Origin: Phycisphaerae bacterium
GTDB lineage: Bacteria > Planctomycetota > Phycisphaerae > Sedimentisphaerales > Anaerobacaceae
Direction of reading: 5' to 3'
Length of the DNA: 34,441 bases
NCBI GenBank assembly: GCA_030609625.1
Contig: JAUWBX010000001.1
Span: forward strand, 1-34,441
Part shown: piece after piece, positions 4,573 through 29,972 of the stretch
Position numbering within the stretch: the stretch's first letter is position 1
Layout: each line of letters opens with the position of its first letter
Program-made: the position numbers and the translations under genes
Notes under the pieces: model-generated
Seen by the model: only the letters and a program-made list of their open reading frames with translations
Told to the model about the DNA's origin: nothing
Databases searched by the model: none

Positions 4573-4576
4573 ATTA

Positions 4577-10769: not shown

Positions 10770-10776
10770 GTGAAAC

Positions 10777-10823
10777 TGGGCGGTACTGGACTTGAACCAG
10801 TGACCTCCTGCGTGTCGAGCAGG
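10777..10823 (-). repeat. orphan 3' portion of tRNA-Val (positions 27-73); left direct repeat (att) of the island
   Basis: The 47 nt are identical base for base to 29899..29945. The flanks diverge on both sides. Confidence 0.9.
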
Positions 10824-10934
10824 GACCGGGGTTTTCTAACACCTTGCCAATAAAGAGCTTACTACAGGCCACATAAGGACTTAGACACTGTTTTCGAACT
10901 GGCTTGAAACTGGTTCCAGACCTGTTTTAGAACT

Positions 10935-10964
10935 AAAACTGCCACAAAATTGCCACAAAATTGG
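10935..10964. repeat. 11-nt tandem repeat AAAAYTGCCAC x2.7 just inside the left island end
   Basis: Read directly: aaaactgccac aaaattgccac aaaattgg. Confidence 0.8.
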
Positions 10965-11063
10965 CTATCCTATGAGCGCGATGTGTTTGGACTCGTCCCT
11001 TGCTTGCGAGTGCTTGAGTCTGTTGGAAACAATTTGGTATGATTATCTTATATAGGTACTGCC

Positions 11064-11426
11064 ATGGTAAAAACAAAACACTTGTACGACCCGGTTGAAG
11101 AATTGGATGGTAACCGAATATTAGTTACCCGTTATTGGCCTCGTGGCGTTTCGAGGGAGCGTCTATCCATAACGGATTGGCTGTGGAATTTGGCACCAAG
11201 CGACGAACTCGTTCGTGGTTGGAAGAAGCAGAGGATCTCGTGAGAGAAGTACATGCTCCGCTACCACGAAGAAATGCGCGGTCAGCTCGAGGCAATCAGA
11301 GATTTGGCAAAGAGAGCTAAAAGTGACACAATAACCCTGTTCTGCTACGAGTACGAAGACAACCCATATTGCCATAGGCATTTGCTGAAGAGATTAATCG
11401 AAAACGAAGAACGAAACGTAGAGTAA
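11064..11426 (+). pseudogene. DUF488 (YeaO-like) family gene interrupted by an in-frame TGA at codon 60
   Basis: My translation: MVKTKHLYDPVEELDGNRILVTRYWPRGVSRERLSITDWLWNLAPSDELVRGWKKQRIS-TGA(11241..11243)-EKYMLRYHEEMRGQLEAIRDLAKRAKSDTITLFCYEYEDNPYCHRHLLKRLIENEERNVE. Both halves are under 60 aa, so they are absent from the ORF track. The YDP...GxRILVxRxWPRG signature is characteristic of DUF488. Confidence 0.7.
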
Positions 11427-12453
11427 ATACCTTCGGATTGGGTTATCATTTACCGAATTATACTTGAGGATGCCCTCTAATCCACAATGGTACAGTTGTT
11501 GGGGGTCAGGCCACCAACGCTCTTGGTCAAGCATTTTTTGGTAGTTGGTATTAAGTGAGTGTGAGTTAAGCGCTAAACGACCTGGAGGGTACTTTGCGCT
11601 TGATTCAATCAGAGGGCCAGGTTTTTCCAAAGTCGAAGCAAGGGAACGAATACCCACGGCTTTGTCATCAACTATTGTCGCGTATAAGGCCTAGAACAGG
11701 TGGAAATCAAGCCTGATATGAAATTAGAGTTGTCTTGTGGTTCTTTACTATCTCAAAACAGGGTTTTTCGAGTGTCAGAACCAGGGATTGTATGGCCAGT
11801 TACAGACCCGATAATAACGATAAATATACTAAGAGCTTCTAACAACATGAATGCTTGCTCTTATTGTCGTGCTGAGCAAAGCGAAGCCTCTGGCATTAGA
11901 AAAGGATTAGAGATTCTTCGCTACACTACGTTCCGCTCAGAATGACATCCAGCCAATTTCTTTAGAGGCTCTAAGCTGGATAGAGCATTTGGCGTACAGC
12001 TATGGAAAAAGTTAAATCGGAGATATCAAGTGAAAAAGGGTTCCAGCAGTTTCCAATCTTGTAGAAATGTTTTTCTATGTACTTTAGCATTCTATTTGCT
12101 CTGCATGACAGGATGCAATGGTCCGGTCATATCATGAACACAAAAAGAGACTTAAAATGTATTTTAGAGTTGGAACTGTAGTTGTTCTTTTGCTCCTCTG
12201 ACTTGGATTATTTCTTGAAGAGTGTGTCACTATCGAAAACGGCCTAATAATCCGCAGAGGTAAATTCTATCACGTTGTCCCTGAAGATGAATATTTTAAG
12301 TTAATAGGAAAGCGGGAACGGGGGAACAAAAATGAGTAATGTTAGATATGTACGGTGTTATGTCCAAAAACCCAAGGGTGTACACAAAGTATATGCCCGA
12401 TTTTTTGAAAATCCCGCTTAGATTTCTAAGAAAAAAAAGCTTGATTATTGATA

Positions 12454-12462
12454 GGGGGGGGG
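12454..12462. repeat. homopolymeric G9 tract in the AT-rich leader upstream of wzz; an A8 tract lies at 12431..12438
   Basis: Read directly: gatagggggggggtact. Confidence 0.9.
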
Positions 12463-12597
12463 TACTATTTGAATCTGAATTATTAGGTAATAAAGCGCTC
12501 CGAGAAATAACGTGGCAAAACAACACGAATAATGCGTTTTTGTGTATGGCTTTGGGGATTTGTGGATTCTCTTAAACTCTGGCAGGAGGCCAATAAT

Positions 12598-13833: not shown

Positions 13834-13998
13834 AAGCTGTTCTTTGGCTAAACAAATAAAAATGTCAACGTAATCAGCGGTTAGCTGCAACCCACAGGCC
13901 TGCCCTGAGCGCAGCCGAAGGGGACGGAGTCTAAGAAGATTGACCGATGATTATTCCACTATGAACTAACATTCGCGTAATCTGCGGTTTGAGTAATA

Positions 13999-14304
13999 AT
14001 GACATCCAGAGAAGAAGCTATAAAGCAACTGATTAAAGAACAGCTTCGTAAAGCTGCTTTCGGACTGAAGGGCTATAAAGTCTTTCTTTTCGGCTCGAGG
14101 GCTGCGGGAACGGCTAAATGCCGTTCAGATTTTGATGTTGGTGTTTATGGGAAACGCCCAATTCCTTTGAAAACATTTTACACCATTGAAGATTTGCTTG
14201 AGAGTATTGAAACTCTTTACTCTATAGAGTTAGTCGATCTAAACCGTGTAAGCCTGTCGTTTAGAAAAGAGGCAATGAAAACAGCGGAGATTATTTATGA
14301 ATAG
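13999..14304 (+). CDS. minimal nucleotidyltransferase (MNT) antitoxin of an MNT-HEPN pair
   Basis: GSRAAGTAKCRSDFDVGV, the GS-x(n)-DxD nucleotidyltransferase motif. 101 aa; overlaps the next gene by 8 nt. Confidence 0.85.
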   Translation: MTSREEAIKQLIKEQLRKAAFGLKGYKVFLFGSRAAGTAKCRSDFDVGVYGKRPIPLKTFYTIEDLLESIETLYSIELVDLNRVSLSFRKEAMKTAEIIYE

Positions 14305-14692: not shown

Positions 14693-14878
14693 TCACTAAA
14701 AGCCTCCAACAAAATGAAATAGCCTGAAAAGATTCGCTTAAAATCTGCGAAATCTGTGTAATCCGTGGTTAAGAACAAGTATGCCAAGATTTCCTACAAA
14801 GGAAGATTACATTATGATATTGCAACTTTACAATGTGGCATTGTAAGTTTGTATCGTACTAATGTAGGCTTGCATCAA

Positions 14879-15067
14879 GGCGTTGCCAAGAGTAAATGAG
14901 GCATTTCCAGTTAAGAATAAGGCGTTGCCAAGAAGGAATGAAACGTTTCCAGTTGAAAATAGGACATTTACAACTGAGAACGAGGCGATTTTAACTGAAA
15001 ATGAGACGTTTCCAGTTGGAAATGATGCGTTTCTAATTGGAAATAAGACGTTTGGGTTAAAAAAAGG
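14879..15067. repeat. nine contiguous 21-nt direct repeats, consensus gRCGTTTCCAGTTGRAAATGA, each containing the dyad TTTCC-N4-GGAAA
   Basis: I phased the units by hand at 14879, 14900, 14921, 14942, 14963, 14984, 15005, 15026 and 15047. There are no spacers between units. Confidence 0.9.
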
Positions 15068-15298
15068 CAGAAGTATTGAAAAAAAGGCACATAGGCGCGC
15101 AAAGGGACAGAGGAGCGGTGGGAGTGCGAGAGTGCGGAAGTGTGTAATTTACGGTTTGACAATACGACGGTTTCATAGTAGAACAGTATAACAGTATCAC
15201 TGTTTGACCGTATTACCGTATAACTGTGATACGCTGGGAAAAACATATGAACGAGAAAACCAAATAACCACATTTTACCAGAAAGGAAGGATTGAATC

Positions 15299-15907
15299 AT
15301 GGCACGTTTTCCCGATAGAGAAGCAGAAATAAAGGCATTGGCACAGAATATCGTAACGGGTCTCGCCGCTAATGCGGCGGATTTCCCCACGCCGCCGGTC
15401 GCTTCGGCGGCCCTGCAGGCGCTGCTTGACTCATTCATCACACTCAGTGACGAGCAGGTGGCCGCTCAGGCCGCCGCCGAGCAGGTGACGGCGACCAAGA
15501 ACGCGGGCATGGAGGAGCTGGTCACGGCTATGCGGGCGGACCTGCGCTATGCCGAGGATGCGGTCAACTACGACGATGCGAAATTGAGCACCCTTGGCTG
15601 GGGCGGCCGGGCCGCACCAACCGAGCTGGAAGTGCCGGGCCAGGCCCGAGCGCTGGAGGCCCCGCAACAAGGCGAAGGATGGGTCTTCCTCGACTGGAAA
15701 AAGCCGACCGACGGCGGCGCCGTGGCAGCCTATAAGATCGAAAGGCGCGAACGGCCCGCGGGCGACTGGATGCTGGTGAGTATGGCAATTGAGTCCGAGG
15801 CGACGCTCAATAACCAGGAACGCGGCAAAGACTTGGAGTATCGCGTAATCGCTACGAACAAGGCTGGCGACGGTGTGCCGAGTAATACGGTTGCGGTGGT
15901 TTTGTAG
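15299..15907 (+). CDS. fibronectin type III domain protein with a helical Ala-rich N-terminal region (function unknown)
   Basis: C-terminal FN3-like segment (GEGWVFLDWKKPTDGGAVAAYKIERRE...EYRVIATNKAGDGVPSNTVAVV). Good RBS (GAAAGGAAGG) before ATG 15299. GC-rich codon usage. Confidence 0.7.
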   Translation: MARFPDREAEIKALAQNIVTGLAANAADFPTPPVASAALQALLDSFITLSDEQVAAQAAAEQVTATKNAGMEELVTAMRADLRYAEDAVNYDDAKLSTLGWGGRAAPTELEVPGQARALEAPQQGEGWVFLDWKKPTDGGAVAAYKIERRERPAGDWMLVSMAIESEATLNNQERGKDLEYRVIATNKAGDGVPSNTVAVVL

Positions 15908-15966
15908 AGAAGGTACAAAGGCACAAAGGTGCAAAGGTACAAAGGTAACTCTGAGCCTCTGCCCCT

Positions 15967-17121
15967 TTGCCACTGGACTTAACTATGATTATCACTCCAA
16001 CTCAAATCACTCAATCCGGCCCCGGCGTTGACCTGTCGAGCCTGCCGGAAGGCGTGTCTATCAAGATGTCCGACCTGGTCAAGGACTTCAAGTATGCCCG
16101 CAACGCTGTCACCCTGACCTTTGACCTGTCAGGCTACGAAAACGTACATCTTGCCTTCGAGGCGATGGAATTCGGCGATGAGCCGCACGCCCCGCCGCCG
16201 AATCCATTCACAGGGGAAGCCGATTTCGACGGTGTGGCGGTCAGTGCGGATGGGGTGGCCTGGTACGAAATCCAGGACCTGCGGCACCTGCGGTCTGACC
16301 GGTTCCTTGGCTACGATATCGATCTGGACGCTGCGATTGCCCAGTGGGGGCTTTCTTATAGCAGCGAATTCCAGATTCGTTTCTGCCAGTACGACAATAA
16401 TCCGGCACCGATGGACGGGATTTTTCTCCACAAGATAGAACTGCTCGGCGACCTGCGTCCGCCGATCCTGCACCTGACCATGAATGACAACGCGTCAAAT
16501 CCAACAGTTCTGGACTCTGCCGCAAGCCAGCGTCATCAGACATTCATCGATCCGGGCGGCAACCCCAACACTAACACCCATTCCGTCCCTGGGCCGAACG
16601 GGACCACAGCTCTGGCCTTTGACGGTGTGGACGACCGGATAGATTTCGGGCCGACGTTGCTGAGCGAGATGGTGGGTGCGGGCCGGGATTTCACCCTGGC
16701 GTTCTGGTACAAGACCGATAGCAGCCCCGGCGACACCACAAAGATATTCTTCCGTCGGCGGATGTCGTTTTCGGAGCCGCACGTAACGGGCTATGTTAGC
16801 AACGACCGCATCTACTGGCTGGTGGGATGGGGTGATGGTTATATGTGGCTCTATTCGGCGTCCGGCATGCTCAATGGTCACTGGCGGCACGTGGTCTATC
16901 GCCGCCAGGGCCAGATGTTAACACTGTGGATAGACGGCGCCCTTCAAGCGACCAAGAGCCACCCCGACTATGCGAAAGGCTTTTTCGCCGGAGCATGGGA
17001 CCCGCGAGCGATTGGACAAGCCTATCAGAGCAGTGACTCAGATTGGCCCTTCGCTATGGCCGACCTCCGAGCGTACGACCGTGCGCTGAGGGACGAAGAA
17101 ATTACGGAACTGAGCGAGTGA
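15967..17121 (+). CDS. LamG / concanavalin-A-like lectin domain protein with an unknown N-terminal beta-rich domain
   Basis: Laminin_G_3-like segment (ALAFDGVDDRIDFG...FTLAFWYKTD...WRHVVYRRQGQMLTLWIDG). The start is uncertain: TTG 15967 or ATG 15985, neither with a clear RBS. No signal peptide. Confidence 0.65.
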   Translation: MPLDLTMIITPTQITQSGPGVDLSSLPEGVSIKMSDLVKDFKYARNAVTLTFDLSGYENVHLAFEAMEFGDEPHAPPPNPFTGEADFDGVAVSADGVAWYEIQDLRHLRSDRFLGYDIDLDAAIAQWGLSYSSEFQIRFCQYDNNPAPMDGIFLHKIELLGDLRPPILHLTMNDNASNPTVLDSAASQRHQTFIDPGGNPNTNTHSVPGPNGTTALAFDGVDDRIDFGPTLLSEMVGAGRDFTLAFWYKTDSSPGDTTKIFFRRRMSFSEPHVTGYVSNDRIYWLVGWGDGYMWLYSASGMLNGHWRHVVYRRQGQMLTLWIDGALQATKSHPDYAKGFFAGAWDPRAIGQAYQSSDSDWPFAMADLRAYDRALRDEEITELSE

Positions 17122-17271
17122 GAAAGTGTGAAGGTGGAAGGTGAGAAAGTGAAAAGTCCTTTTAACCTGTTACCTGTAACCACCAGCTTTGCTGGTTTGC
17201 GTAAAAGCTAACCGCTATACGCTATACGCTAAACGCTAACCATTAACTGCTAATTGCTAACAGCTAAAAGA

Positions 17272-18639
17272 ATGTCTAAACTGAATTCTGAAATGGTTGA
17301 GGCAAGTGACTGCGAAGAGCTAACTCAGGCTGAAACCATTGACCGGCCTTGGAACCCAGCGCACGGACCTTTGGGTAAGCTGAAAGATATTTTCATTTCG
17401 CACAAGGCGAGTCTACAGAACCTATCCTCGCTGGTCATCATCAACTTCATGGTGGCCGGGCTGGGTTTCCTTACGCGAGTGAAAATTGCAAATGTGCTGG
17501 GGAAAGAAAGTTTCGGCCTGCTCGCTTATGGCCTTGCATTAGGAAGCTATGGAGCAGTCATAGTCAGGTTTGGTCTAGACCGAACCTTTGTACGTGACCT
17601 CATACATTACCCAAGGCGTTTTGGTCAATTAGTTGCTGGAAGTCTTGTTTTACGAGGCTTGCTCTTAGTTGTGGTGATCCTGGCGTTGGTCAGTTGGAAG
17701 TTGACTTTTGCGAGTAGCGAGCTTAGCTGGGGTGTGATTGCTGTAGTACTTGGTACCTCCCTTATGGCTTTGGACCTGCAAGCCGTGTATGACAGTTGGC
17801 AGAAAATGTCACGTCACGCAGTCTATAACCTTGTGCAGAAGTGCTGCTATTATGCGCTGATCTGGGCTGTGATATTATTTTTTCCGAGTAAGCTTAGCAT
17901 TGGCCTGATCGGCGGGGGGATGATGGCCTCTGTGGCTCTATACCTGTTTATGCAGCAACGGTGGGCGTTTAGGCGAATCGAATTTTATAAAGCAAAAGAG
18001 TCTCTGGCAAAGACAGCTATCAAGCTTGGATTCGCCAATCTTTTGGTATGGGCGGCTGCTATAGGTTGTCTGTCCTTTGGTGTCTTAAATCAGCTTGTGT
18101 TAAAATATTTCAGGGGAAATGCCGAACTTGGCGGATATGCAGCGGCCTGGCAAATAGTTGCAGTTGCAATGCTCTTATTGAACCAGGTAGCAAGGATTGG
18201 CAAACCAGCAACTGCCAGAATCACCCGAGAAGGAACGGACAGGAATACAAGGAGAAGGTTCTTGGTGAAATATTCCGCCGTGATGTTTGCTGTCGCTTCT
18301 CCAATAGCCATTAGTGCCTTGTTTTGCCCGGGACTAATCCTGAAAACTCTATTCCGTCCTGAGTATGCTTCCGAGGCAGGAACCTTGCGAATTCTCGGAA
18401 TATACCTAATGTGTTTTCCTCTTGGTCTTGTTGCCTCACAATACGTGATCGCTGCCCGAATGGAAAAAACCTATTTTGCCAGTGTTATTGTAGGTGGTAT
18501 TCTAAGTGTCTTGTTCTGTCTTTTTTTGATTCCGAAGTTAGGGGGGATGGGCGCAGCGATATCGCTTCTAATTGCGCATGGCATATCCATGGGATTATAC
18601 TGGGTTGCCATGATTCTGCATGTCCGAAATCATGAATAA
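17272..18639 (+). CDS. wzx: oligosaccharide flippase (Wzx / MOP-superfamily polysaccharide biosynthesis protein)
   Basis: Polytopic membrane protein of about 455 aa with a PST-family profile, inside a glycan locus. ATG 17272 (MSKLNSEM) is preferred over the track start at 17254. Confidence 0.75.
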   Translation: MSKLNSEMVEASDCEELTQAETIDRPWNPAHGPLGKLKDIFISHKASLQNLSSLVIINFMVAGLGFLTRVKIANVLGKESFGLLAYGLALGSYGAVIVRFGLDRTFVRDLIHYPRRFGQLVAGSLVLRGLLLVVVILALVSWKLTFASSELSWGVIAVVLGTSLMALDLQAVYDSWQKMSRHAVYNLVQKCCYYALIWAVILFFPSKLSIGLIGGGMMASVALYLFMQQRWAFRRIEFYKAKESLAKTAIKLGFANLLVWAAAIGCLSFGVLNQLVLKYFRGNAELGGYAAAWQIVAVAMLLLNQVARIGKPATARITREGTDRNTRRRFLVKYSAVMFAVASPIAISALFCPGLILKTLFRPEYASEAGTLRILGIYLMCFPLGLVASQYVIAARMEKTYFASVIVGGILSVLFCLFLIPKLGGMGAAISLLIAHGISMGLYWVAMILHVRNHE

Positions 18640-20038
18640 TATTACAGGCCATAAAAATGTATGCACTGAAGTTGTTGCTAAAAACCTCTGTATTGGTTGT
18701 GGGGTTTGCGCCAGTGTATGCCCACGCGAAAACCTAAAAATCGAATTTAACAGCTTCGGTGAGTATAATGCTCTTGAAATCGGTAATAGCTGCGGGGAAA
18801 AATGTGATCTATGCTTAAAGGTATGCCCATTCTATAACAACAAAGATAACGAGGACACACTGGGTAAGAAGCTTTTTGCAGAGACGCCTGGAATTAAACA
18901 TACGCCGGAAACCGGCTATTATATAGATTCCTTTGTTGGATATTCTAATATTAAGAGTCACCGTGAAAACGGGTCATCTGGCGGTTTGGCAACTTGGACA
19001 TTGGAAAAATTACTTACTGATAACCTTGTTGACTATGTGGCTTGCGTGTCTCCAAACAATGACCCGGAAAAATTATTTAAGTTTAAGATATGTAACACCC
19101 CTGAGGAAGTTCGTGAATGTTCCCGTTCCTGTTATTATCCTGTCGAAACAAGCGAGGTTATTAAACACATTTTATCACATGATGGGCGATATGCCATAAT
19201 TGGCCTTCCTTGTTTTTGTAAGGCCATTCGTTTGGCAATACAGATAAATCCAAAACTTAAACGCAGAATAAAATTTGTGTTAGGCTTAGTTTGTAGCCAG
19301 TTAAAGAGTAAGTTTTTTGCTGAATATATCTGCGCATTGGGTGGTGGAGACCCTCATTACCTCAAGCAAGTTACGTTTCGTATCAAAGACCCAAACCGTC
19401 CGGCGTCAGATTTTGGAATGAAATTCGTTTCTGAAAACGGGATGAATCCGAGCCGTGAAGGTGTAGTTTTCTGGACCGAGGGCATGAGCCGAATTTGGTG
19501 TGACCGCTACTTTACGCCTAACGCTTGCAACTTTTGTGACGATGTATTTGCCGAGCTGGCCGACGCCTGCTTTATGGATGCTTGGTTATCACCGTATAGA
19601 AATGATAATCGTGGGCATACGATTATGTTAATACGTAATAAGGATTTACTTGATCTGATAGAAAATCCTGATTCTGAGAAAGCTCTTCAGATAAGTCATC
19701 TGCCCATCGAGCAAGTAATTCGAAGTCAAATTAGTGTGATATTCGAAAAACGCAAAGCCATTTCGGAGAGATTGGCTCACTGTGACAAGGAAGGCCTGAC
19801 AACACCAGCCAAGCGAGTCAGCCAAAAATCTAAATTGAGGTATGATTCTCGATTGGAGATTAGAAGCAGATTAATCATTTCGCAAAGCAGCCCCGATATT
19901 TGGCTAAAATGCGGGAAAAAACTTAAAGAATTTTACAGAACTATGCGCTTATCTAGGGCAACACTTGTGCTCATTAAGTGGTGCCGTGGTTTTATTAAGA
20001 AAATTATTTCCTGGGTACCCATTTTTACCAGCAGATAA
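18620..20038 (+). CDS. coenzyme F420 hydrogenase/dehydrogenase beta-subunit-like (FrhB-family) Fe-S flavoprotein
   Basis: Two ferredoxin motifs (CIGCGVCASVCP, CDLCLKVCP) and the GSSGG motif. This family commonly pairs with a polysaccharide pyruvyl transferase. An alternative start, ATG 18632, overlaps the wzx stop. Confidence 0.8.
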   Translation: MSEIMNNITGHKNVCTEVVAKNLCIGCGVCASVCPRENLKIEFNSFGEYNALEIGNSCGEKCDLCLKVCPFYNNKDNEDTLGKKLFAETPGIKHTPETGYYIDSFVGYSNIKSHRENGSSGGLATWTLEKLLTDNLVDYVACVSPNNDPEKLFKFKICNTPEEVRECSRSCYYPVETSEVIKHILSHDGRYAIIGLPCFCKAIRLAIQINPKLKRRIKFVLGLVCSQLKSKFFAEYICALGGGDPHYLKQVTFRIKDPNRPASDFGMKFVSENGMNPSREGVVFWTEGMSRIWCDRYFTPNACNFCDDVFAELADACFMDAWLSPYRNDNRGHTIMLIRNKDLLDLIENPDSEKALQISHLPIEQVIRSQISVIFEKRKAISERLAHCDKEGLTTPAKRVSQKSKLRYDSRLEIRSRLIISQSSPDIWLKCGKKLKEFYRTMRLSRATLVLIKWCRGFIKKIISWVPIFTSR

Positions 20039-20051
20039 CAAGGATATACCT

Positions 20052-21257: not shown

Positions 21258-21347
21258 TAAATACCTTCCAAGACAGGGCAAACTCGAATATGCTGCGGGG
21301 GCAGAAAAAGCATTCCTATTGAGTTTTAATTTGGAGACTATAGAATA

Positions 21348-22214
21348 GTGTGTACTTGTGCAGGTACTATTGGCACTACGCGTACAAAGGCTGAAGACAT
21401 CTCACAGTGGCCTAAAATCTCTATCGTTACTCCGTCTTACAACCAGGGTCGGTTTTTGGAAAAAACTATCCTCAGCATCCTAAACCAGCAATATCCAAAT
21501 CTTGAATATATGGTGTTGGATGGCGGTTCGACGGACAATTCCGTTGATGTCATTAAGCGATATTCGAATCAACTGTCTCACTGGGAAAGTGGCCCGGACA
21601 AGGGACAAGCCGCAGCAATCGCAAAAGGTTTTGCGTCTTCGAGCGGAACAATCCTGGGATGGCTTAACAGCGACGATATGCTCATGCCAAACGCACTTAT
21701 AAATGTGGCAAAGGCATTCTTAGCATCAAGCGAGATATGTGCTGTAACAGGTCGATGTGTCATAATCGATACGGACGGAAAACCGTTTTCAGTTAGTATC
21801 CCGATTATGCGATCCTGGAGGTCTATGTTGTATCTTGGAACCGGCTTTTACCAAATGGCAACCTTTTGGAAAAAGTCGGCATATGAAGCGGTCGGACAAC
21901 TGAACACCGAAATGTATTTCAGCTTCGACGCGGACTTATTTCTCCGTATCAGGAAATATGGCCGGATTGAGGCAATCAACAGTTATCTGGCGGCATATCG
22001 GTCGCATAAGAAATCCAAAACCACAACTAACCAGCGCATAATGCGGGCTGAGAACCGCATGATTCAAAAAAGATATTCGAATGTAAATGATATTACAGTG
22101 ATATTGTCACATGTGGCTAAAAGGGTACGTCCGGTCCGCAGAATCCGCAACAGTATCTTTTGGTATATAGATAAGCATAAGCTAATAGAGCTTTGCAGGA
22201 TCGCACAAACGTGA
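21348..22214 (+). CDS. glycosyltransferase family 2
   Basis: ISIVTPSYNQGRFLEKTILSILNQ...LDGGSTDNS. GGAG lies upstream of GTG 21348. Confidence 0.85.
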   Translation: MCTCAGTIGTTRTKAEDISQWPKISIVTPSYNQGRFLEKTILSILNQQYPNLEYMVLDGGSTDNSVDVIKRYSNQLSHWESGPDKGQAAAIAKGFASSSGTILGWLNSDDMLMPNALINVAKAFLASSEICAVTGRCVIIDTDGKPFSVSIPIMRSWRSMLYLGTGFYQMATFWKKSAYEAVGQLNTEMYFSFDADLFLRIRKYGRIEAINSYLAAYRSHKKSKTTTNQRIMRAENRMIQKRYSNVNDITVILSHVAKRVRPVRRIRNSIFWYIDKHKLIELCRIAQT

Positions 22215-23497
22215 TGAAATTACAGCAGATTCTTTCCAGCGATATAAAAAAAAAGATAACAAACATCCTGCTGTTTCTTTACGGCACCTCCACCGGTTTG
22301 CCGGATATAGCGATCGCTTTTTATAATATACGTCTGCGATTAGACGATGGCATCATGGTGATTTTGTTTCTTTGCGTCCTTATTAACGGGCTATACCATC
22401 CCTATCGTTTTACGAAAACCCAGTTGAAATTCCTGAAGCTCGCAGCGCTCTTTGCAGTCTCTTGTCTATTATCTTCGTGTGTCACCCTCATCCTGGATCT
22501 GCCATTTGATTACTATTCGCTGTTCCGAATGCTGGGCTGCATGCTTATTTTAGTAACACTTTCTACGATTCTAAAATCTCCACGATTATTTGTATGGCTG
22601 GGGTGGGGTTTGCTACTTGGCGGCAGCATTCTTATGCTGCAAATCTTACTTACATGGCATAGTAAAGCAGCTCAAATTTCACTTTTGGCATATTCATTTC
22701 GACTAAAAACCGCTTTGAGTTTCAAGACATGGAATGCTAACACTTCCGCCAGCTATGCCATTATGTTTGCTTTTATCATGGCCTTAATCAGCTATGAGAT
22801 GTCGGGGATAAAAAAGGGAATATTCTGGGTGGCGGCAGGTGCCTTTAGCTTGATCCCATTGTTTACTTTTTCCCGGGTGGCGGTGGCTGGCATTGGAACA
22901 GCCTGGCTGACTTTCATATTGTTGGCACGCGGGAGCCGTCCCGCAAAAGCCGTGATTATTATGCTATTTGTCGGCATGTTCACATGTCTTGCAATATATG
23001 AAGGGGAGCTGATTCGCTCGGCCGTTCGCATTAACCTGTCAACCGGTGAAGGACTTTCAGACCATCATATAATGTGGCGCAGGGCATTGAATTTAATAGC
23101 CAGGTCGCCTCTTATAGGACACGGGTTTGGGCAGGAAGTTCCCTTATACAAGGCGGAGTTTGGGGGCGGAACAGCCCAAAATGCATTTTTGAGTGTTTGT
23201 GTTGAAGGCGGTTTATTGGGGCTGTTTCTATTTACATGGCCTTTAGCATACCTTGGCCGTCGTTTGTGGAGGTTAGCACATGGCAGATTCTATGATACGC
23301 GGGCGGTGATCTGTTTTGGATTCTTACTGTGTATTCTGGTATTGAGTTTAACGCACTCCGCATTATATTGGCACAAGTCACAAACGTTAATATTGTCTCT
23401 GATGTTGGTTTACATCGGAAAAGGTGAGAGATCGCTGTTATCTGTAGTCAGGACTGAAACGACCGATGCCAAAATGAGAACATGTCAATATGTTTAA
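22214..23497 (+). CDS. O-antigen ligase/polymerase family membrane protein (Wzy-like)
   Basis: About 10-12 TM helices with a Wzy_C-like loop (WRRALNLIARSPLIGHGFGQ). ATG 22214 overlaps the GT2 stop as TGATG. Confidence 0.7.
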   Translation: MKLQQILSSDIKKKITNILLFLYGTSTGLPDIAIAFYNIRLRLDDGIMVILFLCVLINGLYHPYRFTKTQLKFLKLAALFAVSCLLSSCVTLILDLPFDYYSLFRMLGCMLILVTLSTILKSPRLFVWLGWGLLLGGSILMLQILLTWHSKAAQISLLAYSFRLKTALSFKTWNANTSASYAIMFAFIMALISYEMSGIKKGIFWVAAGAFSLIPLFTFSRVAVAGIGTAWLTFILLARGSRPAKAVIIMLFVGMFTCLAIYEGELIRSAVRINLSTGEGLSDHHIMWRRALNLIARSPLIGHGFGQEVPLYKAEFGGGTAQNAFLSVCVEGGLLGLFLFTWPLAYLGRRLWRLAHGRFYDTRAVICFGFLLCILVLSLTHSALYWHKSQTLILSLMLVYIGKGERSLLSVVRTETTDAKMRTCQYV

Positions 23498-24635
23498 GAT
23501 CTTATACATAGTATCTACGCTTCGAAGGTGCGGCCCCACACAGCAATTGTTCAATCTGATCAAATATCTTGACCGCCAACGTTGTCTTCCGCAGATTCTG
23601 ACTTTGTCGCCGGAACCGCAGGATTCCTTGATGGATGAATTTATCCGCATGGGAATCCCGGTTTCCAGTTTTGGTCTGGCTCAATTCACCAGTTTTTTCC
23701 GTGCTCGACGTCGTATCAGTAACTATATTTCCGAACACAGACCTGACATTGTTCACAGCAACGGTTTTCGGGCTGATTTGTTCTCCGCTCGTGTTAACTA
23801 TAGAGTTCATACCGTGACAACGGTGCGCAACCACCTTTTTGAAAATTACGACTATGATTTCGGGTGGGTCGGCCGGTATTTGATGGCACCCCTTCATTTG
23901 AGAATGTTGCGCCGAATCGAAAGAGCGATCACCGTATCTCAAACTCTGAGCGAAAGGCTTTTGAAAGAATATGGATTTGCCTGCGATGTCGTTCCAAACG
24001 CGGTGGACCAAGAGATTTATTTTCCCGCAGCAGCCGCACGAAAACAGCAAATTCGCAGTCAATTGGGACTCCCCCTCGAACATCGGTTATTTGCCGTTAC
24101 AGGGTATCTGTCGGCGTTGAAAGATCCTGTTTGCGTTGCAGAAGGATTTTTAAAGGCGGCAATTCCCAATACCACAATGATTTTTATCGGGGACGGCGTA
24201 ATGCGGGAGAAACTTGACCCGTTGCGCAAAACAGGGAAGATTCTTTTGACCGGCAGAGTAACAAACGTAAAAACCTGTCTGCAGGGCTCCGATTTTCTGG
24301 TGTCAGGTTCTCATACCGAAGGGATGCCAAATGCCGTTCTGGAAGCAATGGCCTGCGGGCTTCCATGCATCCTGAGTGACATACGATCACATGGAGAGAT
24401 TGCACGATACAGCCCGGCGAGCACGAAGCTGTTTCGAGTGAGTGACGCACATAGTCTGGCAGAGAAGATCAGTGAGGTGTTGGCTCAAGACTACGCAGAA
24501 ATGTCGATCGCTGCCGTACAAGCAGTCACTCGCAACTTTAGCGCAAAAACTATGTCAGAGAACTATCTACAGGTATACACATCAATTCTAAGTGAGAAAC
24601 AAACACTAACGGGAGAACGTCGGTGTTCAGAGTGA
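23490..24635 (+). CDS. glycosyltransferase family 4 (GT-B, retaining)
   Basis: C-terminal EX7E region GMPNAVLEAMACGLPCILSD. Confidence 0.85.
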   Translation: MFKILYIVSTLRRCGPTQQLFNLIKYLDRQRCLPQILTLSPEPQDSLMDEFIRMGIPVSSFGLAQFTSFFRARRRISNYISEHRPDIVHSNGFRADLFSARVNYRVHTVTTVRNHLFENYDYDFGWVGRYLMAPLHLRMLRRIERAITVSQTLSERLLKEYGFACDVVPNAVDQEIYFPAAAARKQQIRSQLGLPLEHRLFAVTGYLSALKDPVCVAEGFLKAAIPNTTMIFIGDGVMREKLDPLRKTGKILLTGRVTNVKTCLQGSDFLVSGSHTEGMPNAVLEAMACGLPCILSDIRSHGEIARYSPASTKLFRVSDAHSLAEKISEVLAQDYAEMSIAAVQAVTRNFSAKTMSENYLQVYTSILSEKQTLTGERRCSE

Positions 24636-25357
24636 TAAAGCAGGCTCTTAGGATGATGAAGTGGAAAGAATTGGGGATTGAATACGGCAAGTGCTCCATG
24701 TGTGGCAAAACCCTTTTTATAAAACTCCGTAACGATGATATATCCGCGATAAGATGTGTTCGTTGTAGAGCGTCAGTAACTTCAATGGCCCTTGCCAGTG
24801 TTTTTAAAAAGCTGGTGCCTAATTGGGAAGATAAGGAAATATACGAGCTTTCGTCCCGAGGTCCATTCTTTAAGTTTCTTCATAAAAGGGCATCCCATCT
24901 TACATATTCAGAGTATTTTGATGACGTTACACCCGGGGCTTATAAAGGAGCGGTTCAATGTCAGGACGTGCAAGAATTAACTTATGCCAATGATAGTTTT
25001 GATGTCTGTACATGTACAGAAGTTTTTGAGCATGTGCCAGATGACATTAAAGGATTTAGCCAGATGTATCGGGTATTAAAACCAGGAGGTCTCTTTCTCT
25101 TTACGGTTCCGCTCTCAGCTCATAAGCAGACTGTTGAACGCGCGCGTTTGAGCGAAGGGGAGCTCATAATTCTTGAAAGGGCCGAGTACCATGATGACCA
25201 TATTCGTGGAGCTGGAAATGTCCTTTGTTTCAGGAACTATGGGCTTGATATTGTCGAGAGACTGAGCCTAGCAGGTTTCAAAAATACTGAAATAATATTG
25301 GTGAAAGCACCAACCCGCTGGGGTTATAATCGTCGGGTTGTGGTGGCTCGTAAGTAA
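24623..25357 (+). CDS. class I SAM-dependent methyltransferase with an N-terminal CxxC...CxxC zinc ribbon
   Basis: FDVCTCTEVFEHVPD...VLKPGGLFLFTVP; CSMCGK...CVRCRA. GGGAGAA lies upstream of GTG 24623. Confidence 0.8.
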   Translation: MFRVIKQALRMMKWKELGIEYGKCSMCGKTLFIKLRNDDISAIRCVRCRASVTSMALASVFKKLVPNWEDKEIYELSSRGPFFKFLHKRASHLTYSEYFDDVTPGAYKGAVQCQDVQELTYANDSFDVCTCTEVFEHVPDDIKGFSQMYRVLKPGGLFLFTVPLSAHKQTVERARLSEGELIILERAEYHDDHIRGAGNVLCFRNYGLDIVERLSLAGFKNTEIILVKAPTRWGYNRRVVVARK

Positions 25358-25416
25358 TCGCTGCAAATAAACAAATGGAATTGAAGCATCATTTGTTCCC
25401 CAAACTATGAAGTGCT

Positions 25417-26310
25417 ATGGTGGACAAAGGCAAAATGGTCTCAATAATAATCGTAAACTACAACGCCGGAAGGTTGTTAAAGGAGTGCATTGACTCGATA
25501 TACAAAGAATCAATAGCAACACCTTTTGATGTGTGGGTTGTCGATAATAATTCCCAAGATGATAGTATCACGATGATTAAAGAATATTTTCCCCAGGTCA
25601 ATGTAATTGAAAACAAAGAAAACGTTGGTTTTGCCAGAGCAAATAATCAAGCAATAGCAAAGTGCACCGGCGATTATATTCTTATTCTCAATCCTGATAC
25701 GCTGATTTTACAGAATGCTCCTGAAAAGATAGTTAACTTTATGGGTGAGAATCCAACTGTTGGGATTTGCGGCTGCAAAGTCCTAAATGAAGATGGAACC
25801 TTACAGCTTGCCTGTCGCAGAAGTATTCCAACTCCGGGAGTAGCATTTTTCCGACTAACAGGGTTAAGCAAGCTTTTTCCCAATAGTAAAATAATGGCAA
25901 AATATAATCTGACTTATCTTGGCCCTGATCAACCTCACGAAGTAGATGCTGTTTCGGGCGCTTTTTTAATGATTCGAAGAAAAGTGGTTGATAATATTGG
26001 CAAACTTGACGAAAGGTTTTTTATGTATGGCGAAGAACTGGACTGGTGCTTTAGGGCAAAAAAGGCTGGATGGAAGGTAATGTATTACCCAAATGCGAAG
26101 ATTATTCATTATAAGGGAGAGTGCAGCAAAAGCAACAACAGAAAGGTCACCTTCGAGTTCTATCGTTCAATGTATCTATTTCATAAGAAACATTTTGCTG
26201 AAAATTACAACCCAATCATAAATATTATTATTTATGCTGGTATCCTTCTAAAAGCTCTTATGTCATGGCGCAGTTTTCTCTTTTCAGCAAAAGTTGGCTC
26301 TAAGCGGTAA
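25417..26310 (+). CDS. glycosyltransferase family 2 (rhamnosyltransferase-like)
   Basis: VSIIIVNYNAGRLLKECIDSI...VVDNNSQDDS...ILILNPD. Confidence 0.85.
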   Translation: MVDKGKMVSIIIVNYNAGRLLKECIDSIYKESIATPFDVWVVDNNSQDDSITMIKEYFPQVNVIENKENVGFARANNQAIAKCTGDYILILNPDTLILQNAPEKIVNFMGENPTVGICGCKVLNEDGTLQLACRRSIPTPGVAFFRLTGLSKLFPNSKIMAKYNLTYLGPDQPHEVDAVSGAFLMIRRKVVDNIGKLDERFFMYGEELDWCFRAKKAGWKVMYYPNAKIIHYKGECSKSNNRKVTFEFYRSMYLFHKKHFAENYNPIINIIIYAGILLKALMSWRSFLFSAKVGSKR

Positions 26311-26317
26311 TTTGTTC

Positions 26318-27568
26318 ATGCGAATAATCTTAATACTAGCTAATGCTCTTCTAATAAACCTTGGCTTTCTTTTTGCTTTCCTTATCAGATACGGCCTGCC
26401 ATTTCCTGAGTATAATTTTACACCTTACAAAAAGAGTTTTGTATTTTTGACGCTGATATACATATCGGCTTTATCTTTTTTCAGAGTTTATAAGAACAGA
26501 TTCAAGTCTTCATGGGAACTTTTTCAAAAAGTGTCTTCGGGTGTATTTCTGGGAACGCTGCTTAGCGTAGCTTTTATTTATATTTTCAGAAGTCAATGGG
26601 GCAAATTCCCAACAAGTGTATTTGCCATTTCGTTTTTTGTAAATCTGCTCTTAATTTTCAAGTTTAATCAGTTTGTTCTGAAAACACAAAAGAAGATAAA
26701 AAAGCAGGTGATAATCCTCGGCAAGGGCAAAGTAGATGATATTGTCGGCAAAAAGGCAAATGTAGAAAGAAAGCGAATTGACCAGATTCGTGAACTGCTG
26801 GAATATTCGAATGTTGACGAAATAGTAATAAGCGAAAAAATCACTAATGCAAAAGACCTGAACCTACTGCTCTTTCTGGAGCGAAAGTTAAAAGCTGACA
26901 TTCTATTCAGTCCTTCAGTTTATCTGGAGATCCTACCTGAAAGAATAAACGGAAACTCTTCAGTTGAGTTGCTGAATACTTTCGTGGGCAGACGATCCGA
27001 TCGTGACGAGTTTTTTATTACGATTCTGGATATATCAACCTCATTGATATTGCTGATTTTAGCTGCGGTGCCGATGTTGATTATTTCTATTTTAATCAAA
27101 CTTACATCCAGAGGTGCAGTAATCTATAAGCAACAAAGGGTTGGCAAAGATGGCAAAATATTTACATTGTATAAATTCAGGACGATGGTAAAAGATGCAG
27201 AAAAAAAGGTTGGCCCGGTATTGGCACAAAAAAATGACAGCCGCGTTACAAAAATAGGCAAAATCCTTCGAACTACCCGATTCGATGAATTGCCACAGTT
27301 ATTCAATGTACTGTGTGGCCAGATGTCTATTGTCGGCCCCCGCCCGGAACGACCGCATTTTGTTAAACTGCACAAGGCATTGCAGGGACTAAGACTTGCA
27401 GTTAAGCCAGGGCTTACTGGTCTTGCCCAGGTAAGAAGTTTTTATGACCTGCATCCTAAGCACAAGATTAAATATGATTTTCTATATATTCAAAGAAGGT
27501 CGTTTTTGCTGAATATATATATCCTGCTGCAAACAATTCCAGTGGTATTTTTAAAGAAAGGCTGGTAA
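26318..27568 (+). CDS. initiating polyprenyl-phosphate sugar-phosphotransferase (WbaP/large PGT family)
   Basis: N-terminal TM bundle, a central Rossmann-like segment and a C-terminal bacterial sugar transferase domain (YKQQRVGKDGKIFTLYKFRTM...RFDELPQLFNVLCGQMSIVGPRPERP). Confidence 0.85.
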   Translation: MRIILILANALLINLGFLFAFLIRYGLPFPEYNFTPYKKSFVFLTLIYISALSFFRVYKNRFKSSWELFQKVSSGVFLGTLLSVAFIYIFRSQWGKFPTSVFAISFFVNLLLIFKFNQFVLKTQKKIKKQVIILGKGKVDDIVGKKANVERKRIDQIRELLEYSNVDEIVISEKITNAKDLNLLLFLERKLKADILFSPSVYLEILPERINGNSSVELLNTFVGRRSDRDEFFITILDISTSLILLILAAVPMLIISILIKLTSRGAVIYKQQRVGKDGKIFTLYKFRTMVKDAEKKVGPVLAQKNDSRVTKIGKILRTTRFDELPQLFNVLCGQMSIVGPRPERPHFVKLHKALQGLRLAVKPGLTGLAQVRSFYDLHPKHKIKYDFLYIQRRSFLLNIYILLQTIPVVFLKKGW

Positions 27569-27570
27569 AG

Positions 27571-29172
27571 TCAAAGCACCTCGTAAATAACAATTCTTTT
27601 TTTCATTTTCTTCTTACTCATCCACACCGAATATCTTTTTCGCACTTCTCTGTTAAAGGTTATACTGTCTTCTGCCTGCTTGCCATCTAAGAATTTTACT
27701 ACGTATGTGGTATTGCCGGGGATATTCTCTCCATCCATTCTCCTGCTTGACCTTTGTGCATAAAAGCCAATCCGCGAATCTGCCATTGCTGCCATTGCGA
27801 TTAGACCTTTTTCGCTTGTATTCTCCTTCAACCATTTCGCCGTATCAATATAGCCTTGCTTTTCCCACCGCAGCGGTGTTATCCTGCCGAACTTAGCCGT
27901 ACAAATACTAAAGCCTACTGCCACAAGTATAAAAAACCAGCGTTGTCTGTTTTTCCTTACGGCCAAACCGTTCTTAGAAGTCCTCTTACTTAGCCAGCGT
28001 GCAAGTATCTGCAGGCCAGCCGGAATGTAAAAAGCAGTAAACACAATGATAGGCATACAATGCCTTCTACTTATATAGCTATGATTAATATGCAGCAGCA
28101 CCATCATTACCACATACAGAACTATCAAAGCAAATATAAAAAACCTTTCGGTAAGCAAAGTCCTTCGTAGTTTGCGGAAATGACAATAAAGACCAACCAT
28201 CAGCGGGAGTACAAAAAAGTACATAAGGTTATCACTGATTTTCTCGCCGAGCTGACCAAGGGCTTTTAGTATATCGGTTGGCATCCCAGAAGCTGTGTGT
28301 ACTGCTACGGTGCCATCAAAGCCACTTTGCTCAAGCCTACTGGACTGCCATGGAGTGTTACAGCTTATAACCCTTTTTAGTTTTGGTGGTAAAACTCTTC
28401 CTCTGACCTTCATATAAGGCGCTGCTGGAATTGCAAATCCGATTAGAAGGATCAGGGTTAGGCGAATAGCCTTGAGCCTACTTATATTCGGCCTTGGAAG
28501 AAACAAACTGATTAACAGCCACAAGATTCCATATATTACTATTTGTGCGCATTCCGCTCGTATTGTATGCCCAAGCCCTGCTGCCAATCCAGCGATTGCA
28601 AACATCCACCACTTCCCGAATCTGCTGCCCCAAATTAAGAATAAAAGGCCTGTGGACAAAAACAAGATATGAGGCCATTCCCGAATAACATCACTTCCGA
28701 ATTCGGCTGGATAGGGCAGCATAATTAAAATCAACAATCCCCAAAAGCTGCGCCGAGACCCAACCAGCAATTTCCCGATAAAATATAACGGTATCAGTGA
28801 CAGCACTCTGCATAGTAAGCTCACACTTTGTGCTGAGTAAATCCAGCTATATATAGAGCCATCCTGCGAAAAGGATGTGGTCACCTTATGAGTTAAGAAA
28901 ATAAGAAACGGGTAACCAAAAGGAGATCCATGCTTTATCACGCCAATTGGGTTTTTAGGAAAGTCTTGAGCAAGCCTGACGTATAGTGTTCCATCTTGAG
29001 CAATTAAAACCGTGGTAGCTATTATATATATTCCTATTGCGAGCGAGATTATTAGTAATACGGCGATATGAAGACTATTGCGAGGCCGAGGCGGTCGTTT
29101 GCTGTCCGTAGTAGTAGCCCATACGTATTGTCCAATTGTAGGATTTCTACACGCTTGCGGTGTTTTACTCAC
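27571..29172 (-). CDS. GT-C fold membrane glycosyltransferase (family 39, ArnT/PMT-like) with a C-terminal soluble domain
   Basis: A 533-aa polytopic protein with an early loop Asp (AQDGTLYV) and about 12 TM helices. Convergent with the PGT gene across a 2-nt gap. Confidence 0.6.
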   Translation of the reverse strand: MSKTPQACRNPTIGQYVWATTTDSKRPPRPRNSLHIAVLLIISLAIGIYIIATTVLIAQDGTLYVRLAQDFPKNPIGVIKHGSPFGYPFLIFLTHKVTTSFSQDGSIYSWIYSAQSVSLLCRVLSLIPLYFIGKLLVGSRRSFWGLLILIMLPYPAEFGSDVIREWPHILFLSTGLLFLIWGSRFGKWWMFAIAGLAAGLGHTIRAECAQIVIYGILWLLISLFLPRPNISRLKAIRLTLILLIGFAIPAAPYMKVRGRVLPPKLKRVISCNTPWQSSRLEQSGFDGTVAVHTASGMPTDILKALGQLGEKISDNLMYFFVLPLMVGLYCHFRKLRRTLLTERFFIFALIVLYVVMMVLLHINHSYISRRHCMPIIVFTAFYIPAGLQILARWLSKRTSKNGLAVRKNRQRWFFILVAVGFSICTAKFGRITPLRWEKQGYIDTAKWLKENTSEKGLIAMAAMADSRIGFYAQRSSRRMDGENIPGNTTYVVKFLDGKQAEDSITFNREVRKRYSVWMSKKKMKKRIVIYEVL

Positions 29173-29553
29173 TGCTTTGTCCTGACCTCACACAATTTGT
29201 ACACAAACCACATAATCCTTACCAAAACGATTAATATCCAGAAACTTAGCCATTTTCAGCAAGTATTATGGGGCAAATTAACTAATTTGTCAAAACATTT
29301 TCAACCCGACTTTGACAGTTTTGCAGTTTTGATGATTTCTTTGAGTGGCGAAAAATGCTGAAAAGGGGGTCAGGATGAAAAAGATAAGCTTTTAGCTTTC
29401 TAATTCTTCCTGCTCTTTTTGTTGCTATACCTTTTTGCTTTAGCAGACTCCTGATTTCATTCATCAAACCCTTTGGCAAGCAACTTGTCCTCGGATGCTT
29501 TGTCTTTGTACACTCCTGTAATCTCCCGTGATAACAACTGTAAAACTCTTTAA

Positions 29554-29883
29554 ATGACGTTTTACCGCCGATTATCACAGGTTTTCGGTTACAGTGGTAC
29601 AATTTTCAACCGCCCGCCAAGTGGTACACTTTTGCTCCGCCGTTTACAAGCTGGACTGCAGCGATGGAAAGATGCCTTTAAAATCATAAGAAGAAACTGT
29701 GAAACAGACTGGGCTCAAGTTTATCCACAGTATGCTGTATCGACTTGGATCGGGCATGGAATTGAGGTCTCGGCCCGTCACTATTTGCAGGTTCCGAAAG
29801 AATTGTATGACAAGGTTGCTGCCACAAAATCAAAAAATAAAACAAGCATGAAAAAACGAAGCAAGCATAAGATAAGCTCTTAG
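29554..29883 (+). pseudogene. tyrosine recombinase (phage-type integrase) C-terminal remnant
   Basis: IIRRNCETDWAQVYPQYAVSTWIGHGIEVSARHYLQV carries the distal Arg, the His and the catalytic Tyr context (HY) of tyrosine recombinases. There is no N-terminal or core-binding part in any frame upstream. It ends 15 nt from the tRNA 3' end. Confidence 0.7.
29594..29641. repeat. 27-nt-spaced direct repeat GTGGTACAMTTTTsnnCCGCC x2 inside the integrase debris
   Basis: Read directly: gtggtacaattttcaaccgcc at 29594 and gtggtacacttttgctccgcc at 29621. Confidence 0.8.
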
Positions 29884-29898
29884 AAGAATTTATAACAA

Positions 29899-29972
29899 TG
29901 GGCGGTACTGGACTTGAACCAGTGACCTCCTGCGTGTCGAGCAGGCGCTCTAACCAACTGAGCTAACCGCCC
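29899..29972 (-). tRNA. tRNA-Val (anticodon GAC), 74 nt, CCA not encoded
   Basis: Folded by hand. Acceptor GGGCGGT/ACCGCCC; D arm GCTC-AGTTGGTTA-GAGC; anticodon arm CCTGC-TCGACAC-GCAGG; variable loop AGGTC; T arm ACTGG-TTCAAGT-CCAGT; discriminator A. Confidence 0.88.

Follow-up and report, generated by a model that had tools for sequence, protein, structure and literature searches.

Genomic islands inserted in tRNA genes, including the asn-tDNA islands of Klebsiella pneumoniae, have an established feature list (PMC4891358). Two further systems bear upon how such islands accumulate: the tandem accretion of decayed elements (cis-mobilisable elements, CIMEs) at attachment (att) sites in the streptococcal integrative conjugative and integrative mobilisable element (ICE/IME) systems (PMC5704250, in which Pavlovic et al. 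2004 is cited for CIME accretion), and the tRNA-proximal growth of tycheposon-associated islands in Prochlorococcus, where newer elements push older ones distally and where integrase fragments and partial tRNAs are found in the islands along with a cargo that is mostly non-mobile (bioRxiv 10.1101/2020.12.28.424599). We examined a locus of this type in a 34,441-nucleotide stretch of a Phycisphaerae bacterium (contig JAUWBX010000001.1 of assembly GCA_030609625.1; hereafter “the window”). Positions 10824–29898 of the window are very probably the decayed remnant of an integrative element, designated element A, which was put into the 3' half of a tRNA-Val(GAC) gene by a tyrosine recombinase, on the tRNA-proximal side of an older element, designated element B. 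The island is an ordinary kind of tRNA genomic island, of a textbook class.

As in other tyrosine-integrase tRNA islands, an intact tRNA gene stands at one border and a direct repeat of the tRNA 3' part at the other, an integrase lies beside the tRNA, the composition is atypical, and the one tRNA serves as a hotspot for unrelated islands. Unlike those islands, the window holds only a 77-codon remnant of the integrase and not a functional gene, its repeat is 47 nt and reaches back to the anticodon stem compared with 17–20 nt in GIE492, and its host is an uncultured Sedimentisphaerales planctomycete. Apart from a complete integrase, an empty site and demonstrated excision, all the defining features listed in PMC4891358 are present. 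The locus resembles CIME accretion in having integrases of the same specificity that are yet only distantly related, and differs from it in having no conjugation or mobilisation genes and in the decay of both partners. Serial integration at a tRNA, a partial tRNA and fragmented integrases are shared with the tycheposon-associated islands, whereas no replication or packaging hallmark modules were seen in the window; membership of that family is not claimed.

The intact tRNA-Val(GAC) gene (29899..29972, minus strand; Rfam 70.2 bits) is the single tRNA that ARAGORN detects in the window and is identical to the tRNA of two relatives (loci L002 and L044); Rfam gave no RNA family other than tRNA-Val in the whole window. 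The 3' 47 nt of this gene (29899–29945, the attL core repeat) recur in an orphan copy at 10777..10823 (minus strand, the attR core repeat), each copy starting with the 5' strand of the anticodon stem and ending with the discriminator base. A first-pass annotation made from the sequence had described this exact repeat with unrelated flanks and had read it as the footprint of a tyrosine integrase in the tRNA 3' half; the former is confirmed and the latter supported. The 47-mer TGGGCGGTACTGGACTTGAACCAGTGACCTCCTGCGTGTCGAGCAGG is exact at these two window sites only, with 0 expected from shuffles, and no third copy was found in the window when up to 3 mismatches were allowed, nor any further tRNA-like fragment of ≥11 nt elsewhere in it. 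Beyond the repeat, 5 of 9 bases match on the low-coordinate side and 0 on the other. A reading of the 47-mer as a tRNA pseudogene, or as a repeat that is dispersed or due to chance, without link to site-specific recombination is exceedingly unlikely: nothing but the bare presence of a repeat speaks for it, against which stand the chance expectation of 0 copies, the presence of convergent integrase remnants in the same relative position after both copies, and the confinement of the 47-mer, among ~100 fetched loci, to tRNA-Val genes or integrase-adjacent sites. The 47-mer is not a dispersed repeat, and the concern that it might recur at many non-tRNA loci is thereby met by observation.

Both junctions were recovered in independent assemblies. 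A JGI contig (L100, 99% identical to the window) spans the tpsA-like gene, the orphan repeat and the island left end with an identical attR junction; an ENA contig (L101) confirms attL, reading from the integrase stub through the repeat into CGCTC, i.e., into the tRNA 5' half. An assembly artefact, in which the contig was mis-joined across the 47-nt repeat and the genome truly held an empty site and a separate circular element, is highly improbable. Logan contigs (k=31, SRR14876850), 99.98–100% identical to the window with one mismatch (in L001), do break exactly at the repeat, and many contigs of related metagenome-assembled genomes (MAGs) end at tRNA-Val; a break at a 47-nt repeat is, however, expected of contigs built at k=31. 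L100 spans the hairpin described below, the orphan and the island left end, L101 goes on, with CGCTC, into the tRNA instead of showing the GACCG of the circle junction, and a relative (L089) carries pilus genes, tRNA and integrase stub on one contig. Misassembly at the repeat is unlikely. The empty (or element B-only) junction was defined as ...GGTTAGAGCGC + 47-mer + GTTTCACAACCTTGTTG, and the circle or attP junction as ...AAGAATTTATAACAA + reverse-strand 47-mer + GACCGGGGTTTTC; the junction of the orphan repeat with the island left end, which is common to attR and an excised circle, had no match in IMG/VR.

The open reading frame (ORF) stub ending 15 nt from the tRNA, which had been called an integrase C-terminus, proved by pairwise and family homology to be a true one. 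This remnant, Int-A (29650..29883, plus strand; codons 29650–29880 and a stop), comprises the last 77 codons of a tyrosine integrase (RRNCETDW...WIGHGIEVSARHYLQV), keeps the second catalytic Arg, the His and the Tyr region, and sits within a fusion ORF (29554–29883, plus strand) whose stop lies 15 nt from the tRNA 3' end. It aligns at 33% identity (E 4e-7) with the C-terminal 67 residues of the full-length tRNA-Val-adjacent integrase of locus L080, over a stretch that includes the Tyr, the second catalytic Arg and the His region. A database search returned 71 homologues, all short and several with PF00589; one of them, at 99% identity, is this gene itself, and most others are 65–80% identical. 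An exhaustive search with a 166-aa member of the family (P0022) found full-length relatives of 369 aa at 61% and of 425–437 aa at 54% (51–61% and ~370–440 aa overall), so the family is a normal one of which the window keeps only about the last fifth. Pfam Phage_integrase did not match the stub even at E≤1, and the homology is shown by pairwise and family searches because the Pfam model does not score the stub. The N-terminal part of Int-A is absent throughout the window. We considered whether the subfamily might be a conserved “mini-integrase” of catalytic-domain stubs and dropped this as the main reading because of the full-length members at 51–61% and of an in-frame TGA and N-terminal loss in locus L093. 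Int-A-family ORFs from different samples (L093 9700–10501; P0004, P0006, P0022, P0025, P0029) begin at the same Met, M[L/Q]IALCRLAGLRRGE, which in L093 comes right after the in-frame TGA; the shared Met may be due to an old common nonsense mutation or may be a conserved feature of catalytic-domain-only ORFs. The last 115 residues of a 4655-aa predicted protein (P0075) are 68% identical to the Int-A catalytic domain, and the gene call probably runs through a giant surface protein and on into an integrase stub.

A solo insertion sequence (IS) end of 149 nt (29501..29649) lies at the truncation point of Int-A. It is 95% identical to 773–921 of two contigs (L096/L097) that are in other respects unrelated to the window; there the segment immediately precedes a gene for an rve (DDE) transposase, which is inserted in a polysaccharide locus. 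The match stops abruptly on either side, and integrase homology begins at 29650, the next base after the IS end; no second IS end was found in the window and no transposase gene in the island. This arrangement suggests that an IS inserted into int-A and that a later deletion took most of the IS along with the 5' four-fifths of int-A.

The orphan repeat at the other end of the island is joined to the remnant of a second, unrelated tyrosine integrase. Int-B (10589..10655, plus strand) reads MTMSVYT at 10589–10609 and, after a frameshift, VVHGDENIAIDALPI at 10611–10655; it retains the catalytic Tyr codon at 10604–10606, and its tail homology runs on to 10776. The remnant matches, catalytic Tyr included, the end (...DMTMSVYTHVVHGDENFAIEALPI; tblastn E 1e-20) of the integrase of locus L076, a 568-aa ORF convergent on the tRNA (PF00589, Phage_integrase, E 3e-23). 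At the nucleotide level, window 10655–10823 is 82% identical over 169 nt to L076 12465–12632, which contains the tRNA 3' part, a hairpin and ~120 nt beyond. In the window the terminator-like hairpin and U-run (10729..10769, minus strand) are directly 3' of the orphan tRNA fragment; at 10739–10769 a 12-bp stem (dG −16 kcal/mol, z −3.35) is followed by seven U on the tRNA strand. Homologous hairpins occur 3' of the intact tRNA-Val in L076, L014, L011, L013, L053 and L064, and no terminator-like site was found 3' of the intact tRNA-Val of the window. The order of orphan repeat, hairpin and Int-B has the same relative layout as the intact tRNA–integrase junction of L076. Since the orphan and hairpin adjoin the Int-B remnant, the distal junction of the island would be the integrase-proximal end of an older element, and the array would be tandem. 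As read from the sequence, Int-B is cut back to the stop codon of the tpsA-like gene.

Related loci were collected by a T2SSF-anchored search of GTDB species representatives, which gave 80 loci, all from Sedimentisphaerales, Phycisphaerae or other Planctomycetota MAGs. The tRNA-Val(GAC) gene comes right after the pilin genes in 56 of the 80; 14 of these 56 contigs end within ~800 nt of the tRNA and 42 extend further, and the 42 loci with ≥800 nt downstream of tRNA-Val have almost no gene family in common there. None of the 42 has a window gene, from the island or the left flank, downstream of its tRNA-Val, and no polysaccharide-locus genes were found downstream of tRNA-Val in 81 related loci; no second copy of the tRNA fragment was found within ~8.7 kb in the T2SSF-anchored loci. 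The loci compared for island absence belong to other species, each with its own variable content downstream of the tRNA. An integrase or integrase fragment is convergent on tRNA-Val in 11 of the 56 loci and, with Int-A counted, the tRNA-Val integrases comprise at least six lineages that share at most 38% identity with one another. Stubs of the Int-A type adjoin tRNA-Val in L009 and L089 (behind the same pilus operon) and in L093, with entirely different neighbour genes, and the DNA just 3' of the intact tRNA in the window is 86–88% identical to L009 and L089. The pilus operon–tRNA-Val site is a genuine integration hotspot in this clade.

Several of these loci hold observations of their own. 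The integrase ORFs of L006, L008, L061, L073, L076 and L080 remain open for 26–68 nt into the tRNA-Val gene, with the stop codon inside the tRNA. In L089 (832–8213) a second T2SSE ATPase, a pilin-like gene and several unannotated genes lie beside the Int-A-type stub, a different accessory set at the same hotspot. An Int-A-like stub in L095 (901–1323) is beside a tRNA-Val(TAC) gene within a tRNA-Pro/Val/Ala cluster of another MAG, from which it appears that the Int-A family targets tRNA-Val genes more generally. A scan of IMG/VR with the 47-mer gave one match, the viral-classed contig L088 (IMGVR_UViG_3300031553_000009), which contains the 3'-terminal 49–50 nt of tRNA-Val but not its 5' half (472–523), an intact 346-aa integrase (494–1534) that is 52% identical to that of L061, and a tRNA-Met 260 nt away; the tRNA segment of this contig is a candidate attP or else a displaced attL in a tandem array.

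The right flank of the island consists, by Pfam, of two pilin-like genes, T2SSF and T2SSE. The left flank holds, in order, a sodium:solute symporter, an M3-like peptidase, a pyruvate formate-lyase (PFL)-like glycyl-radical enzyme with its activase, TpsB and a TpsA-like protein. TpsB (5911–7824, with a ShlB domain) and the TpsA-like exoprotein (7912–10587) form a block (5911..10587, plus strand) that abuts the Int-B remnant. A TpsA-anchored search of JGI metagenomes gave, among the matches listed, at least six loci (L082–L087): over ~5741–10577 the TpsAB block is 85–90% identical in five of them (L082–L086) and 99% in L087, which comes from the same species and has the PFL genes as well. Homology to the metagenomic relatives stops at 10577, close to the TpsA stop at 10587. 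In L082–L084, the three more distant loci whose contigs reach beyond the block, the upstream neighbours differ. On the other side, three loci that continue past TpsA (74–89% protein identity) carry a gene for a PA14/LamG-type giant protein and neither a tRNA nor pilus genes. We compared the genes downstream of TpsA in these relatives with those downstream of tRNA-Val in L012, L010 and L004, and rejected synteny between them: the shared genes belong to a large PA14/LamG family at 35–50%, which is too weak for linkage. TpsAB may have been carried in by element B, or may have come later as a replacement.

According to the first-pass annotation, removal of the island with one repeat would restore the pilus operon, tRNA-Val, its terminator and convergent tpsA. 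What would be left is instead pilus operon, tRNA-Val, hairpin, older integrase remnant and TpsA, which is a previously occupied site. The hairpin and T-run 3' of the orphan are indeed present, as had been described; they are not simply the original terminator, the Int-B remnant of L076 type coming next. A single 19-kb island in a virgin site, whose deletion restores the pilus operon, tRNA-Val, a native terminator and convergent TpsA, is accordingly a poor explanation, and we judge it improbable. It would explain the exact repeat, the integrase stub and the hairpin, and hairpins of the same type occur 3' of intact tRNA-Val in several relatives in which no integrase was detected; set against it are the second integrase remnant with its catalytic Tyr between hairpin and TpsA, the occurrence of cargo modules elsewhere on their own, and the lack of any linkage in relatives, TpsAB being found in 0/42 pilus-anchored loci and tRNA-Val or pilus genes in 0/3 TpsA-anchored loci (in downstream sequence, among the matches listed).

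Several observations also weigh against serial insertion of element A beside element B. The search of relatives for an empty site, proposed as a check of the island, revealed no pilus operon–tRNA-Val–TpsA arrangement, and neither an empty-site allele nor an element B-only allele was found; the same-species contigs reached by exact-protein look-ups are all occupied by island junctions or broken at the repeat. The 0/3 count from the TpsA-anchored loci counts here also: no relative has TpsAB near tRNA-Val, and the state before insertion is thus reconstructed, not observed. The Int-B remnant is very short, with ~22 matching codons in addition to the nucleotide-level tail homology, and the distal end of element B, with its distal att copy, is not in the window; that copy may lie beyond the window or may have been deleted. 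The hairpin is also found 3' of the intact tRNA in relatives without a detected integrase (L014, L011, L013, L064), and it could be native sequence copied by L076-type elements, in which case the “older element” would weaken to an older integrase beside a native terminator. Finally, the module at 14878–17136 (described below) is 73–94% identical in nucleotide sequence in two other contigs (L102 and L103), where it heads different polysaccharide loci without a nearby tRNA, and part of the cargo may have come by recombination after integration.

The history that we propose for serial insertion is as follows. Element A would have brought its own copy of the last ≥47 nt of the tRNA, and recombination would have joined the host 5' half to the element A 3' half (attL, 29899–29945), making a working tRNA again, and displaced the previous tRNA 3' half by ~19 kb (attR, 10777–10823). 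The displaced fragment is still joined to the hairpin and to the last codons of Int-B, which places element A on the tRNA-proximal side of element B, in a serial, tandem integration. Element A would then have decayed as an IS hit int-A and a deletion removed ~80% of int-A and most of the IS; decay of element B would have cut int-B to roughly 22 codons at the TpsA stop codon. The island, which lacks a functional integrase, would be unable to move on its own and is probably immobile; its loss or movement would come only via a related integrase acting in trans, or by rare recombination between the 47-nt repeats.

Short repeats at the island left end (10888..10961, plus strand) comprise CTGTTTTNGAACT at 10888 and 10922, and TGCCACAAAAT in tandem at 10940 and 10951. 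The 11-mer TGCCACAAAAT is exact in all three of its copies, the third being at 29820–29830 within the Int-A 3' end; two copies lie 117–138 nt inside the left end and one lies 69–79 nt from the tRNA, so that all are within ~140 nt of the core repeats. The left-end repeats and TGCCACAAAAT are candidate arm-type integrase-binding sites, and the presence of TGCCACAAAAT at both island ends favours both ends belonging to one element.

The cargo would be a mosaic in which a dead DUF488 gene, an MNT/HepT pair and an FN3-LamG module accompany a Wzx/Wzy locus with enzymes for pyruvyl and methyl decoration. All genes are on the plus strand unless stated, and were assigned by Pfam. Next to the left end is the frameshifted DUF488 pseudogene (11064..11426, two ORF fragments); the counterpart genes in L100, which is identical to the window at least to 11100 and 99% identical overall, carry PF04343/PF22751. 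There follow a Wzz-like chain-length protein (12532–13833, a weak match), an MNT/HepT-type nucleotidyltransferase toxin-antitoxin pair (13999–14304 and 14297–14692), and a high-GC module (14878..17136) composed of a 21-nt degenerate tandem array (14877–15053), an FN3 protein (15299–15907) and a LamG protein (15967–17121) that is a member of a widespread ~378-aa family. The Wzx/Wzy-type polysaccharide locus (17254..29172 as a whole) encodes a Wzx flippase (17254–18639), an FrhB-like protein (18620–20038), a pyruvyl transferase (19965–21257), a GT2 glycosyltransferase (21348–22214), Wzy (22193–23497), a GT4 glycosyltransferase (23490–24635), a methyltransferase (24623–25357), a second GT2 (25417–26310), an initiating sugar transferase (26294–27568) and, on the minus strand, a PMT_2 glycosyltransferase (27571–29172). 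Like other Wzx/Wzy O-antigen and capsule loci it has a flippase, a polymerase, an initiating transferase, several glycosyltransferases and modifying enzymes, and, as in L102 and L103, a conserved FN3-LamG head module followed by variable genes; unlike them, it lies within an integrative element, between its att sites, and the island contains neither an export gene (Wza) nor one for a tyrosine kinase. The cargo probably alters a cell-surface glycan.

Other identities for the island were sought among its ORFs. Pfam domains of relaxase, coupling protein and type IV secretion genes were found in no island ORF, and those of capsid, terminase, tail and lysis genes were likewise absent from the island (PHROGs profiles were run on viral contig L088 only); an ICE or mobilisable element and a prophage were rejected on this account. 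A composite transposon was rejected because there is one 149-nt IS end only, with no second end and no transposase.

The first-pass annotation held that all DNA between the repeats was horizontally acquired. This follows from the topology, and the cargo is absent at the loci of relatives; the cargo need not, however, be one piece. A compositional discontinuity, such as acquired DNA may be expected to show, is present: 2-kb island segments have a tetranucleotide distance of 0.33–0.39 from the flanks, compared with a maximum of 0.20 for 2-kb chunks of the flanks. GC content is itself a mosaic, with 36–40% in Wzz and the toxin-antitoxin pair and also in the last GT2 and the initiating transferase, 55–58% in FN3-LamG and 41–48% in the remainder; the flanks have 45–50%. 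The FN3-LamG module and the IS end recur elsewhere, which implies that parts of the cargo circulate independently, and the 19 kb may not all have been delivered in a single step. These data bear on a further explanation, in which the integrase stub is an old relic common to relatives, the cargo came later by IS-mediated rearrangement or homologous replacement, and the repeat was made by an element to which the 19 kb did not belong as cargo. It draws upon the Int-A-type stubs that abut tRNA-Val in other species with entirely different neighbours (L089, L093, L095), the IS end exactly at the stub boundary and the interruption of a polysaccharide locus by the same IS in L096, the role of FN3-LamG as conserved anchor of otherwise variable polysaccharide loci, and the mosaic composition of the island. 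We consider it a possible but doubtful account. The repeat is perfect (47/47), as fits a fairly recent event, and the island left end shares its 11-mer with the int-A 3' end, as expected if these are one element; the L089 stub is closer to the window (~84% nucleotide identity outside the tRNA) than are the adjacent pilus genes (~77%), and this is difficult to square with a purely vertical relic of ancient origin. Anything between attL and attR, moreover, arrived with or after the element. Serial integration of element A beside element B, with its cargo delivered in one step or several, is the reading that we retain.

Some repeats within the cargo and features of the flanks may be recorded. The 21-nt array at 14877–15053 has ~8 units of two alternating variants, lies upstream of FN3 and under a probably spurious 102-aa ORF, and is kept in L103 (8339–8566) before the same FN3-LamG module; it may be a regulatory or structured leader. 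The spacer between FN3 and LamG (15910–15947) has 4.8 copies of an 8-nt repeat, AAGGTACA; in relatives the spacer holds an extra small gene (PDDEXK_3 at 602–973 in L102, bAvd/23S-rRNA-IVP at 9549–9929 in L103), and it appears to be a small variable slot within a conserved module. In the Wzz-like gene an exact 12-nt tandem repeat, ATGATGTAAGAG (12815–12848, 2.8 copies), encodes DVRDDVRDDV. The glycyl-radical enzyme of the left flank (2209–5500) is of 796 aa, its radical-SAM activase has an extra ferredoxin-like domain, and both are common to the same-species contig L087. The TpsB/TpsA pair behaves as a cassette, with different neighbours in contigs that extend beyond the block, apart from L087. 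TpsA had no Pfam match even at E≤1; its N-terminus resembles a two-partner secretion (TPS) domain and it has an acidic D/G/N repeat at 9946–10052, and an exact-protein look-up of TpsA with its GTG start gave no record.

The value of the finding is local, in that the class of element is known and no long-standing question is opened; the main interest lies in the clade-wide hotspot and not in this island. To our knowledge few integrative elements have been described in Planctomycetota, and the locus offers a worked example there of serial integration followed by IS-driven decay. It marks ~19 kb of the contig, and probably more to the left, as accessory DNA, which is relevant to binning, pangenome work and metabolic inference in uncultured Sedimentisphaerales. 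We suggest, tentatively and with less than even confidence, that the tRNA-Val(GAC) gene behind the conserved type IV pilus-like operon is a hotspot throughout Sedimentisphaerales/Phycisphaerae, with a 47–50-nt segment that six or more deeply divergent tyrosine-integrase lineages, one or more of them on a virus-classed contig, have come to target in common, that integrase-less relics with perfect att repeats might be shuffled in trans, and that sets of accessory genes, those for surface glycans among them, would be exchanged at the site. The pilus operon–tRNA-Val site is in any case a reproducible hotspot at which assemblies of this clade tend to break, and it is a place in which to seek accessory genes, including cell-surface polysaccharide loci.

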